DNA of 64,000 bases from Candidatus Versatilivorator sp. (GTDB taxonomy: Bacteria > Acidobacteriota > Terriglobia > Versatilivoradales > Versatilivoraceae): the NCBI GenBank assembly GCA_965207735.1, contig OZ242296.1, positions 416,001 through 480,000 on the forward strand. The letters run 5' to 3'. The notes beneath the pieces are model-generated. The model had not been told where the DNA came from, did no database searches, and was given only the letters and a program-made list of their open reading frames with translations. How positions within the stretch are numbered: the stretch's first letter is position 1; each line of letters starts with the position of its first letter. Shown in pieces: positions 26,733 through 36,056 of the stretch. The position numbers and the translations under genes are program-made.

Positions 26733-26902
26733 GGGGACGTTGTTGAATTACTGGAAAAACCTTGTTCACACCAAGTGTTGGAAAAGGGTCGGATGGAGAT
26801 CGGACATAGATCCCCCACTAGGCAAACCACTTCAACACCATCATCGGCAAGGGATTGCAGAACCGCGAATCCAATTTATTCCAATTATTCAACAACGTCC
26901 CC
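26733..26902 (+). repeat. ~170-bp inverted-repeat-bounded element, copy 1 (full)
   Basis: GGGGACGTTGTTGAAT...ATTCAACAACGTCCCC; interior alignable with copies at 32247, 34126 and 35888. Confidence 0.92.
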
Positions 26903-27151
26903 AATGCGTCTTGATCCGGCCGGCTTCCGGAGCTAAATAAGAATACCGGAAGAGCTAGTCTTTTTTCTTGGGTGGCGGAGGTGGTGGCGGTGGCTTGATG
27001 ACGTTCGTGGGTTTCGGAGACACGCCTTTCATACTCTCTGCTGGGTGCGCTATTGACTTTTTCCCCTGCCCACAAGCACTGCGCTTTGATGTATTTGCAT
27101 TCTATTCGGTCACTTCTGGTGCAGTCACTGGATTGGCCGACAATCCTGATG

Positions 27152-27170
27152 GTATGATCATATATCATAC
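27152..27170. promoter_or_regulatory. Palindromic operator upstream of the MazEF-type TA operon
   Basis: GTATGAT-CATAT-ATCATAC, containing a -10-like TATGAT, just upstream of the AAGGAG RBS. Confidence 0.55.
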
Positions 27171-27185
27171 TTTGAAGGAGTACTC

Positions 27186-27428
27186 ATGCCGAAAAGAAAA
27201 GTAGCGGTCACTCTCGACGCCAAGCTGCTCCATTGGGTCGATGAGCTTGTCTCCCAACAGCAATTTGAAAGCCGCAGCCAAGCCGTAGAGGCGGCTCTCG
27301 CCGAAAACCTCCAGCGACTTGACCGAACTCGACTCGCTCACGAGTGTGCCAAGCTGGACCCAACCGAAGAGCAGCAACTCGCTGAGGAGGGAATTGCCGC
27401 TACGGGTGAGATGTGGCCCGAATACTGA
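27186..27428 (+). CDS. Ribbon-helix-helix (CopG/EndoAI-type) antitoxin
   Basis: KVAVTLD...SRSQAVEAAL RHH pattern; acidic tail ending WPEY; overlaps the toxin gene. Confidence 0.85.
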   Translation: MPKRKVAVTLDAKLLHWVDELVSQQQFESRSQAVEAALAENLQRLDRTRLAHECAKLDPTEEQQLAEEGIAATGEMWPEY

Positions 27429-27748
27429 GAGGCGACATACGCTGGGCTGATTTGAATCCGGTTCGCGGCCGAGAGCAGGCTGGACGGCGACCGGTCGTCA
27501 TTGTCAGTCACGACGTCTTCAATGAACGCTCTGGTACCGTCATCGCGGTCGCTCTCACGAGCCAGGAGCCACGAGCTCAGTACCCCCTGACGCTTGAACT
27601 GACTACGGCAAAACTGCCGAAACGATCTTGGGTAAAGATCAACCAGATTCGAACGCTTTCCGTGGAGCGCATCGGGCGACGATTTGATCGGGCGTCACCC
27701 GAGGAAATCGCGGCCATCCTTGAAGGCCTTGGCGAAATCATTGGATAG
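27413..27748 (+). CDS. mazF: PemK/MazF family toxin
   Basis: RGDIRWADLNPVRGREQAGRRPVVIVSHDVFN and QIRTLS motifs. Confidence 0.92.
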   Translation: MARILRGDIRWADLNPVRGREQAGRRPVVIVSHDVFNERSGTVIAVALTSQEPRAQYPLTLELTTAKLPKRSWVKINQIRTLSVERIGRRFDRASPEEIAAILEGLGEIIG

Positions 27749-27775
27749 CTTGTTCGACCTTCCCTGCGCTCCAAT

Positions 27776-27861
27776 ACCAGCCAAACCGCTCCAACACCTT
27801 CACCGTCAAGGTATTACAGAACCAACAATCCAGTTTTTTCCACTAATTCAACAACGTCCCC
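27776..27861 (+). repeat. 170-bp element, right half only
   Basis: ACCAGCCAAACCGCTCCAACACC...TTCCACTAATTCAACAACGTCCCC matches the 3' half of the full copies. Confidence 0.88.
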
Positions 27862-27962
27862 TGGTTGTTTGGGTTGCCTGTAGAAGTGTTCACTGGCGTC
27901 TCTCGCAAAATAATGTGTATGATAGTGTCATTCAATATGCCAAGTAGAAAGGAGAATAGATC

Positions 27963-28226
27963 GTGGCTGCCAATCAACTCGTTCAGGCCCGCATTAACGG
28001 AGCCATCAAGGAAGAGGCTGCCGCTGTGCTGGCTGCAATGGGCCTGACCATCTCCGACGCCGTACGGTTGTTGCTGACCCGGGTTGCGCGGGAAAAGGCG
28101 CTGCCGTTTGCACCGCTGATTCCAAATACTGCCACCATCGAGGCCATGAAGGAAGCCCGGAAGGGCGGCCTGTCTCGTTTCGATAGCGTGGCTGCTCTCA
28201 TGGACGACCTGAATGCGCAGGATTGA
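27963..28226 (+). CDS. dinJ: RelB/DinJ family antitoxin
   Basis: VQARI...KEEAAAVLAAMGLTISDAVRLLL...ALPF...PNTATIEAM. Confidence 0.9.
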   Translation: MAANQLVQARINGAIKEEAAAVLAAMGLTISDAVRLLLTRVAREKALPFAPLIPNTATIEAMKEARKGGLSRFDSVAALMDDLNAQD

Positions 28227-28494
28227 GCGCACCCGCCAGTTCAAACGGGATTACAGGCGGGAGGCCAAGGGACCACACCGGAAGTCACTGGACGCTGTCT
28301 TGATTCCCGTCTTGTTGGCATTGGGCAATGACCGGCCGCTCGAACCTCGATACCACGACCATGTGCTGAGCGGCGAGTGGCAGGATTTCCGTGATTGCCA
28401 CGTGAAGCCTGACCTGGTACTGATCTACCAGAAGCAAGGTGCCGACTTATTGAGGCTGATTCGCCTCGGGACCCATTTGGAACTCGGGCTTTGA
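28213..28494 (+). CDS. yafQ: YafQ (RelE family) mRNA interferase toxin
   Basis: FKRDY, DHVLSGEW, RDCHVKPDLVLIY and RLGTH motifs. Confidence 0.92.
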   Translation: MRRIERTRQFKRDYRREAKGPHRKSLDAVLIPVLLALGNDRPLEPRYHDHVLSGEWQDFRDCHVKPDLVLIYQKQGADLLRLIRLGTHLELGL

Positions 28495-33891: not shown

Positions 33892-33959
33892 GGCTCCCCC
33901 AGACTTCCTCTCAACTTGCCATCCATTGTACTTGCTAAGGATGGATAAATCGGATGGGT

Positions 33960-34118
33960 ATTCGGCTTCGAGGCTGGTGGTGTAGCCGCCGTAGGCGAGC
34001 TTGTGAGTGACCGTGGTGGCTAGGCTTTCTTCGTCGACTCCGGTGCGGAAGCCGGTGAGGGCTACCCGTGATTACGCCCTGAGCTTTGGATCTCCGTTGG
34101 CCAGGGTGACGCCTACGG
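33960..34118 (-). pseudogene. C-terminal fragment of a phage late-control/baseplate hub protein D (P2 gpD-like)
   Basis: Manual translation VGVTLANGDPKLRA*SRVALTGFRTGVDEESLATTVTHKLAYGGYTTSLEAE, with one internal stop. Begins at the 170-bp element. Confidence 0.55.
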
Positions 34119-34125
34119 GGGGGCA

Positions 34126-34271
34126 GGGGACGTTGTTGAATTGCCGGAAAAACTTTGCTCACACCGAATGTTGGAAGAGGTCGGACAGAGATCCCCCACC
34201 AGGCAAACCACTCCAACACCTGCATCTCCAAGGGATTGAAGAACCGCCAATCTGGCGTTAGACAACGTTCC
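34126..34271 (+). repeat. 170-bp element, copy with an internal deletion and a degenerate right end
   Basis: Left IR is intact and the interior alignable; right end reads GACAACGTTCC. Confidence 0.85.
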
Positions 34272-34317
34272 TCCCGGAACACCGGAGTTCCGGACGTGGA
34301 TCCGGCTCCTGTTCTAC

Positions 34318-34520
34318 GTGCCGGCGGTTTGTGGGGGGGGCTTCGGCTTGCTCGGTGGCTACCTCTGCGACCGATTTGGTCGGCTGAGGATCATGTTTTG
34401 GAGCATTCTAATCTACCGCTGCTCAGCTTTCGCAACCGCCTTTTCAACGTTGGCGATTATTCTGCTCGCGCTCCGTTGTACGACGTGCATTGGTATCTCC
34501 GTCAAGTTTGTGACAGGTCT
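34318..34520 (+). pseudogene. MFS transporter fragment
   Basis: GGFGLLGGYLCDRFGRLRIMFWSILIY (MFS motif A), with no start region or C-terminal half. Confidence 0.6.
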
Positions 34521-34624
34521 CTCAGACGGGAAAGCTCTCGGTGCTTCATCCAATCAGCCTCTGCTGCCGACTAAGGCCTGAGTGAAAGCCTCGATAAGTG
34601 CCGCCGCGCTACGTTGGCAATGCC

Positions 34625-35842
34625 TCAATCCGTATGTCTTTCATCAAGACCATGCGGGGAGCCGAAGAGTGAGTTCCCTCTGCGAATGGCGAGAGCCTTG
34701 CCGTCGATAATCAAGCGTGCGTTAGGCAGGCAAAAATCGATGTTCAGCGATGATTCATTGTGTCCTCCCATGTATCGGTTTTCCCCGAATGCTATGAAGA
34801 GGTTGCCATGAACGTGCTGATCCACGAGTGTCCACCCAATCGTGCGACGCAATGCAGGATTAAGTCCGATGCCGATATGGCTTATCCGGCTCGTTTCGCC
34901 GGTGTGCCCCCGAAATATAGACCGAAGAGCGCCACCTCCAGACGCCGCGTCAATCTGCACGATACGTCCCTCTCGAAAATGGAGAAGTACATCCGTCGCT
35001 GGGCCCGCCCGTTCGAGCCTTAGAGTACCCTCTCCGCTCTCCTCGAGCACCGTCGTATAGATTGAACCGCTCGGCAGATTCGATCCAATAGCACCAGCTG
35101 CTATGTCCGCATCATCGATATCTCCATCATCAGTCAACCATTTGCGATCGCCATGTAGCAGTCGCAACTTGTGACCGGAAGTCTCGAGCACGATGTGCTG
35201 GGAACCATGTAGATGCTTGACAACAGCTGCGATTTCCGTTCTGAGATCTGCTACAGATACACAGAGTGCCTGTAACATTAACGACTCAAGCTGATCAAAA
35301 GCGAGCCCCGACTGTTTGGCACGTTTCCGGGTCGGTATTCCCACTAGAAGAAACGGCAGTCGCAATCCGCTTTCATGATCGCTGAGGCGGCCAACAGCGT
35401 CCCGCCATGCCTGAACCCGGTTGGCGGGAACAGCAGAAAGATCGGGGTGTGTGCTTCCCAGTAGAAGTCTCCGATGAGCACTCGACAGCAGCGTGGATCG
35501 ATGGGCGTCCCATTGCTTTAAGTATTGGAGTGGGGCACGTTCAAGCAATGTAGCCATGTATTCCGGCGGCGAGAGGCGAACCATCGGCGTTGCGCCCCGG
35601 CATTCTATTCCCATCAGAATCTCGCTCACGATCTCAATCCGTCCGGAATCGTCTTGAACTTCGATTAGCTCTCCATCGCGAACTCCGAGTGCATCGACGA
35701 TGCGATTAGCGCTGTACTCCAGGAAATCATCTCGCGACGTAGCCCCGAAAGCAGAAAGGAGTACCGACCGACAGACTCTCACTCTGTAGGTCGACCAGCA
35801 AGTGCGCATTTCGCTTGCGATATTGTCGGCTGCGGACAACAC
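34625..35842 (-). CDS. Aminopeptidase-like protein (M29 thermophilic metalloprotease fold)
   Basis: NLPSG, HIGIGLNP and IAFGEN..GG.N.S motifs. Start uncertain. Confidence 0.7.
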   Translation of the reverse strand: MLSAADNIASEMRTCWSTYRVRVCRSVLLSAFGATSRDDFLEYSANRIVDALGVRDGELIEVQDDSGRIEIVSEILMGIECRGATPMVRLSPPEYMATLLERAPLQYLKQWDAHRSTLLSSAHRRLLLGSTHPDLSAVPANRVQAWRDAVGRLSDHESGLRLPFLLVGIPTRKRAKQSGLAFDQLESLMLQALCVSVADLRTEIAAVVKHLHGSQHIVLETSGHKLRLLHGDRKWLTDDGDIDDADIAAGAIGSNLPSGSIYTTVLEESGEGTLRLERAGPATDVLLHFREGRIVQIDAASGGGALRSIFRGHTGETSRISHIGIGLNPALRRTIGWTLVDQHVHGNLFIAFGENRYMGGHNESSLNIDFCLPNARLIIDGKALAIRRGNSLFGSPHGLDERHTD

Positions 35843-35887
35843 CTCGCCGACGTCCTTTGACCGGGCGCGAAGGTCTACGGGCGAACA

Positions 35888-36056
35888 GGGGACGTTGTTG
35901 AATTGCTGGAAAAACTCTGCTCACACCGAATGTAGGAAGAGGTTGGATTGAGATCGGACAGAGATTCCCCACCAGGCAAACCACTCCAACACCTTTGTAG
36001 CCAAAGGATTGCATCCCCGCCAATTCGAATTATTCCACTAATTAAACAACGTCCCT
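35888..36056 (+). repeat. 170-bp element, full copy
   Basis: GGGGACGTTGTTGAATTGCTGGAAAAAC...TTCCACTAATTAAACAACGTCCC. Confidence 0.92.

Follow-up and report, generated by a model that had tools for sequence, protein, structure and literature searches.

Array of repeated elements

We analysed a stretch of 64,000 nucleotides (nt) of Candidatus Versatilivorator sp. (the window; G000:416001-480000, where G000 is the genome of the window), in which seven full or partial copies of a 170-bp element separate toxin-antitoxin (TA) and other accessory genes between positions 26733 and 36056. All seven lie where an earlier note on this DNA had placed them, in a single orientation (Table 1), and no further copy of their end occurs within the window. 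Comparison of the sequences indicates that the repeats are almost certainly non-coding dimers of the terminal inverted repeat (TIR) of TIRtrons, the elements that carry a TIRYT transposase gene.

With 7 sites per 10 kb, the array is the point of highest density in the genome; none of 5,000 random placements of 55 sites reached 7. Its GC content is 56%, against 61-62% on both sides. The interiors of the copies, described in the earlier note as diverged, are so in part, yet they are homologous, with mean identities of 74-81%. Two full copies fold far better than shuffled sequences (DNA z = -6.2 and -3.1), a strong folding that is expected because the ends are inverted, and a search of Rfam gave no match to the element itself. 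Two features had been overlooked: a truncated DDE transposase (30746-32236) and conserved tails of about 10 nt outside the GGGG of the ends. Contigs of the two best public runs, from one sample that may be the source of this DNA, confirm the array save for one extra base at 35710.

The partner enzyme

The earlier note suggested that the elements are served by an enzyme encoded outside the window, either an HUH/Y1 RAYT-like transposase or a tyrosine recombinase. We identified the former, bounded by the same ends: at L149, L155 and L244, ends about 1.35 kb apart enclose an open reading frame (ORF) of 321 amino acids (aa), and damaged copies occur at L118, L177 and L116. The predicted protein matches Y1_Tnp above the cut-off, HTH_3 at the cut-off and, in its C-terminal part, Bac_DnaA_C and HTH_23 below the curated cut-off. 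H60 and H62 of the HUH motif and Y119 are invariant in 37 homologues, and the motif YIHLNP fits Y---NP. Relatives of the protein are named RayT by their sources; the NCBIfam RAYT model NF047646 scores 63.5 bits, below its cut-off of 80 bits, and sequence searches of the PDB with the single protein and with a 37-row profile returned no relatives.

The right TIR overlaps the last codons of the TIRYT gene. The window elements match the TIRtron end at 27 of the first 28-29 nt, and about 60 nt on their right align with the 3′ end of the gene. Full-length, stop-free copies of the gene are present in G002, G004, G009 and G011, and the congener that lacks the end has only distant fragments of it. None of 16 unpaired ends in G000 leads into a transposase.

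A tyrosine recombinase is not needed as the enzyme. Such proteins account for 39 matches in G000, none of them in the window, and the two best are XerC/D-like by inspection. One Y1_Tnp match is a different RAYT, with 28% identity. Two further observations concern G000. At G000:C1:4059621-4060644 (L288), two TIRs flank a HicB gene and a HicA-like remnant, which stand where the 5′ part of the G000 TIRYT gene would be, so that cargo is found inside the ends. Separately, genes for P4-type tyrosine integrases of about 430 aa form more than 30 repeats (about 35 places) with near-identical ends, which is insertion sequence-like behaviour.

Distribution of the ends

The element had been noticed in the array alone, but it is not confined to it: G000 holds 87 ends at 55 sites, in both orientations. 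The ends are mostly paired as dimers, with subfamilies of about 72, 116, 170, 205-220 and 255 bp, and other subfamilies form same-direction, TA-rich clusters of their own. Searches detected the end in 12 of 13 congeners and in none of 27 other relatives. Among the matches listed, the record titles name Ca. Versatilivorator and related Terriglobia, with at least four rows from other taxa. Six matches to the end were obtained in viral contigs, none of them with the remainder of the TIR.

The end also occurs in records titled Vicinamibacterales, Silicimonas and Aminicenantes (L130, L169, L138, L153), which may reflect transfer between taxa or binning error; the Vicinamibacterales record carries it along with the major facilitator superfamily (MFS) gene that precedes one TIRtron. 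[quoted passage not shown]

Junction footprints

As the earlier note had led us to expect, there is no target site duplication (TSD): across 156 paired elements, counts of duplications of 2-8 bp at offsets of 0 and up to 15 equal those of shuffles. The tail outside GGGG is 7-11 nt long and specific to the subfamily. Among the ends with an element-free homologue (79 of 380), homology stops 8-11 nt from GGGG in 37. The junction of e5 cuts a DDE element that is otherwise 98% identical to longer copies, which marks the event as a recent one. The 47 junctions show just a mild excess of G, reaching 40-55% at a few positions, and share no fixed target word, so that the cut is placed only to within about 3 nt.

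A collinear empty site was identified for 7 of 134 paired elements. One of the seven belongs to a host MITE, two are one site that is nearly clean with a short overlap, and four lost 61, 136, 145 and 641 nt. Gains of DNA that stop at the tail are seen as well: G000 contains a 333-bp tandem unit, both copies of which end 9 nt past the TIR, and a 326-bp duplication with an element between its copies; L127 holds a 638-bp tandem unit with a 103-aa ORF that ends at the tail; in G008, BrnTA lies between 161-bp duplicates ending at the tail; and there are many end repeats of 20-140 bp. Neighbouring genes are often cut mid-gene, including IS, TPR and Rhs genes and the TIRYT gene itself. With such cuts, and with junctions that do not fall at one fixed crossover, the site-specific cassette platform envisaged in the earlier note is not borne out.

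Comparison of the array locus between genomes

Between related genomes, the array locus keeps its structure but not its content, in agreement with the variable cargo that the earlier note anticipated. In nine genomes the locus lies between the cofE/DUF1553-DUF1501 block and cofH/cofG and holds 3-6 copies per genome, all 44 of them pointing one way (gene names were assigned partly by inspection of ORFs; CofH by Pfam). The cargo found there across genomes comprises MazEF, DinJ-YafQ, BrnTA, Xre-RES, Fic, hydrolase, cupin, DUF6338 and the PDC-M71 pair. Neighbouring 170-bp copies up to 15 kb apart agree in orientation in 39 of 40 cases, against 8 of 18 beyond 15 kb (79 of 120 matches, kept by hand because they reach into the 170-bp interior). 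For pieces of close TIRYT copies (28 of 51 rows), neighbours agree in 10 of 10 cases and those more than 15 kb apart in 6 of 10.

Of 52 full copies, 35 were testable, and 28 of these have their nearest copy of that genome in their own locus, versus 15.4 expected; the elements of the Rhs and reductase loci each form a clade of their own. Compared with G002, G000 is missing some 4.3 kb between two right TIRs and shows a second switch in a left TIR; another pair switches near element position 60. The DinJ-YafQ unit, from TIR to TIR (27862-28510), is 96.5% identical in G002 but is preceded there by other genes. The piece with the DUF3800-VI RNA followed by an element recurs in G003, G004 and G012 amid other neighbours, and BrnTA, which in G008 lies between the 161-bp duplicates, is found elsewhere in G003, G004, G005 and G012.

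Several associations with defence-related and other genes were observed alongside. In G008, a kinase and TPR pair at the array end (L059, 6721-9272) matches the PADLOC candidate system PDC-M71A/B. Elements of 170 bp separate orphan Rhs toxin-immunity modules at G009:C1:1109539-1121315 (L056, L057) and G005:C3:788661-803412 (L061, L062); there the element and 166-228 nt are common on one side while the other end differs, and orphan Rhs arrays may arise in this way. In two genomes (L064, 8491-9550, in G011; L293 in G002), a MazEF unit with an element on either side borders a type I-E CRISPR array. In others the MazEF unit adjoins an ANTAR-type gene, and the break is the left end of the element.

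Cargo in the window

Of the cargo listed in the earlier note, Pfam supports the RHH and PemK pair, the RelB and YafQ pair, the DUF3800 piece, HEPN_RES_NTD1 with RES, and peptidase M29. No Pfam match was obtained for the 270-aa membrane ORF or for the two Sel1-like ORFs (29977-30535), and the Sel1 likeness of the latter derives from DNA similarity to a Sel1 gene at 26043-26103. PADLOC named nothing in the window cargo except for weak TPR/AAA matches. The AAA and TPR pair is also found between elements in G005 and G011, and there an element interrupts the TPR gene at 11 nt. This TPR gene contains tandem units of 126 bp (36765-37820). In the window an IS remnant truncates its 3′ end; in G005 and G011 a TIR element does so. 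At position 35710, contigs of three runs carry an extra G, and the assembly may give a wrong start for the M29 ORF.

Table 1. Elements and cargo of the array and its right flank (window positions; left and right ends are those of the TIR).
Feature	Position	Strand	Left end	Right end	Remarks
e1	26733..26902	+	26733	26902	Full 170-bp TIR dimer; core 98% identical to G002, both flanks common with G002
RHH antitoxin; MazF/PemK toxin	27186-27428; 27413-27748	+			Pfam; e1-e2 segment 98.6% identical in G002
e2	27776..27861	+		27861	Right half of element; compared with G002, junction to next unit within its right TIR
DinJ/RelB antitoxin and YafQ toxin	27963..28494	+			Pfam
e3	28511..28550	+	28511		Left part of element
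DUF3800 gene remnant	28573..28860	-			Pfam, profile positions 122-149 only
DUF3800-VI RNA motif	28946..28997	-			Rfam RF02915, 61.8 bits
e4	29045..29069	+	29055		Tail of about 10 nt and first 15 nt of left TIR; G003 counterpart longer
270-aa membrane-type ORF and broken Sel1-like ORFs	29156..30535	+			No family match
DDE insertion sequence, 3′ part	30746..32236	-			Presumably IS1634-like; cut 10 nt outside e5; longer copies elsewhere in G000 98% identical
e5 tail	32237..32246	+			10 nt; delimited by break in IS (L020)
e5	32247..32415	+	32247	32415	Full; last ~60 nt align with TIRYT gene 3′ end and right TIR
HEPN_RES_NTD1 and RES domain protein	32467..33891	-			Pfam
e6	34126..34271	+	34126		Internal deletion; right end decayed or degenerate
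MFS fragment	34318-34581	+			Pfam, below cut-off
M29 peptidase-like gene	34625-35842	-			Pfam; one base possibly missing at 35710
e7	35888..36056	+	35888	36056	Full element
Tn3-family remnant	36067..36697	+			Starts ~10 nt past e7; tnpA 3′ piece by Pfam; we take it to include a resolvase HTH tail
AAA and TPR gene pair	36888..40758	-			Part of variable block

Proposed mechanism and alternatives

Identical ends on coding and non-coding forms, tails, the lack of TSDs, local co-orientation and tail-bounded gains and losses were observed directly. On this basis we consider it probable that the array grew through the action in trans of TIRYT, which would join the two ends, independently of each other, to close-by sites of the same strand. 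A nick made by TIRYT in single-stranded DNA, some 10 nt beyond the TIR, would be followed by HUH-type transfer of the end to a site for which there is no more than a weak G-rich preference. The target would lose or gain DNA if the two ends arrive at separate places; when one end alone is processed, adjacent genes would be copied along, as in one-ended IS91 transposition. Local targets on the same strand would preserve orientation and so yield a co-oriented array. Host recombination between direct copies may then delete or swap blocks, and G000 does look like G002 minus those 4.3 kb. We speculate that TA modules persist because their loss is costly.

Several results weigh against separate end-joining by TIRYT. 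G000 has only a 5′-truncated copy of the gene (residues 92-321) and no intact member of this family, and G006, G008 and G010, which have ends, yielded no close copy. Only the 79 ends mentioned above are informative, and 42 of them have junctions outside 8-11 nt (range -12 to 38, with some decayed orthologues or elements nested in another MITE). The duplication at L243 is not bounded by a tail, and slippage could account for short end duplications. Crossovers within elements vary in place, lying in the right TIR, in the left TIR or near position 60, and could be explained by RecA alone. The orientation counts are overstated because orthologous arrays share ancestry and are not independent. Contigs of public runs contained no circle or fresh junction, but joints of the best runs had sides of at most 38 nt that fit other copies, and are therefore no evidence on excision either way. 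Finally, all 6 left ends of the 170-bp element in G000 (two loci) are on the G-rich strand, as are 20 of 31 at other loci (p 0.15, by a noisy local proxy); a replication-strand bias, unclear outside the three loci of G000, was not adopted.

These varied crossovers would also be expected if whole TIR dimers simply inserted into an accessory region tolerant of insertions, where host recombination between copies and horizontal exchange between relatives account for all of the shuffling and the elements carry no cargo. Such a passive pile-up would fit the MazEF pair that stands beside a ferredoxin-reductase-like gene in G003, G006, G007, G010 and G012 without intact flanking elements, the cupin and hydrolase genes that are adjacent in G013 without an element, and the 42 of 49 toxin or antitoxin matches in G000 that lie more than 600 bp from any end. 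We regard it as rather unlikely, since it leaves unexplained the co-orientation of 39 of 40 neighbours, the locus-specific element clades and the duplications that end at tails.

Improbable, in our view, is a dedicated integron-like platform in which the elements are recombination sites, TIRYT excises and inserts cassettes (cargo and one site) as circles, and selection maintains a defence library. Nine genomes do share locus and orientation with differing cargo (44 of 44 copies), the DinJ-YafQ unit is conserved from TIR to TIR, the BrnTA and DUF3800-RNA units change neighbours, and the cargo includes TA pairs, the PADLOC candidate pair PDC-M71A/B and Rhs modules. Moreover, 7 of 49 toxin or antitoxin matches in G000 lie within 600 bp of an end, versus a background of 1.7% and 0 of 49 for a control repeat. 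That count, however, falls to 3 of 47 without the two genes of the window and two ends added by hand; there is no fixed crossover, genes (IS, TPR, Rhs, TIRYT) are cut mid-frame, the cargo faces both ways and the array itself contains no enzyme. The inverted ends and short size, together with 111 DDE_Tnp_1 matches in G000, might instead suggest ordinary MITEs of a DDE insertion sequence that form composite transposons. This is highly improbable: TSDs are lacking, none of the listed multi-copy repeats of G000 begins with the end, 0 of 30 DDE loci have it as their boundary (in 3, an unrelated copy lies close by), and the gene that the end does bound is Y1/HUH.

Implications

TIRYTs are the second-largest TnpA-REP subclass and occur in 14.9% of strains sampled, according to the available part of Quentin et al. 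(PMC6006769). The genus studied here offers intact TIRYT genes, hundreds of ends and datable junctions. The proposed joining of ends by TIRYT predicts nicking some 10 nt beyond the TIR, an absence of TSDs, ends joined separately and local targets on the same strand. If it is correct, TA, defence and Rhs modules are assembled into cassette-like arrays by a small HUH transposase, whether incidentally or as its function, and there is a route to accessory-gene arrays that searches based on attC and IntI miss. A wider idea, which we put forward only tentatively, is that TIRYT and its end dimers may be an HUH-driven counterpart of the integron, in which ruler-type nicking some 10 nt beyond the TIR at both ends would copy adjacent genes into same-direction arrays. 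Orphan Rhs toxin-immunity modules, TA and defence genes would thereby be gathered and rearranged with no integrase involved, and many bacterial lineages would have such arrays.

Comparison with known systems

Integrons and clusters of attC sites lacking integron-integrases (CALIN) form arrays in which direct repeats with hairpin potential lie between TA-rich variable units at one chromosomal locus. The window array resembles them, as direct hairpin repeats separate TA-rich variable units at one chromosomal locus, but it lacks the attC box order, IntI and a fixed crossover, its cargo lies on both strands and its neighbours are truncated. In three full copies there is no ordered RYYYAAC/GTTRRRY pair on either strand, as the earlier note had recognised. 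No match to the IntI model TIGR02249 exceeded the cut-off in any of 14 genomes of the genus, nor in any of 14 controls, and this search thus had no positive control.

The remaining comparisons refer to the available parts of the cited papers. One-ended transposition of IS91/ISCR (PMC13181058) likewise involves an HUH enzyme, leaves no TSD and moves adjacent DNA when one end is unprocessed. It differs in that its ori and ter ends are unlike each other and its tetranucleotide target is fixed, whereas here the two ends match, junctions form at either of them and no fixed word is seen; the fixed tetra- or pentanucleotide targets of IS200-IS605 and IS91 are absent from the 47 junctions.

The element class is not an undescribed one, as the earlier note had supposed, but has been known since 2013 as TIRtron/TIRYT repeats. 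These comprise a RAYT-like Y1 gene and long flanking TIRs starting with GGGG, one of which overlaps the 3′ end of the gene; free TIRs occur as dimers and clusters, and the named hosts include Acidobacteria (Di Nocera et al. 2013, PMC3733652). Our elements share the Y1/HUH gene flanked by long TIRs and the free singles, dimers and clusters in the genome. Their TIR, GGGGACGT, matches the GGGGWSAS consensus at 6 of 8 positions, a motif found in most but not all members, with unrelated TIRs allowed (PMC3733652). The tails of about 10 nt and the co-oriented cargo arrays seen here, and the separate joining of ends proposed for them, are not described in the available part of that paper. In titles and abstract openings of the open-access literature, we found no paper on TIRYT tails, separate end-joining, passenger duplications or cargo arrays.

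Domains and motifs, rather than placement in a tree, link the enzyme to TnpA-Y1 subclass 2.1 (2.1.2) of Quentin et al. 2018 (PMC6006769): both have a long protein, HUH, Y---NP, a C-terminal Bac_DnaA_C/HTH_23-like domain and no classic REP hairpins. The available part of that paper covers the end-joining chemistry of HUH enzymes and gives no mechanism for subclass 2.1. REPINs and RAYTs (Bertels & Rainey 2011, PMC3116915; Bertels et al. 2017, PMC5581495) provide a further parallel, as inverted hairpin doublets are mobilised in trans by a Y1 enzyme, and group 1 RAYTs are the most IS-like of the true RAYTs (PMC5581495). Unlike these, our TIR is not a short palindrome and contains no GTAG-type REP unit, the coding form is multi-copy and clustered, and kilobases of cargo lie between copies. 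The tandem clusters with flanks and the asymmetric excision reported for REPINs (PMC3116915) are the nearest published footprints to those described here.

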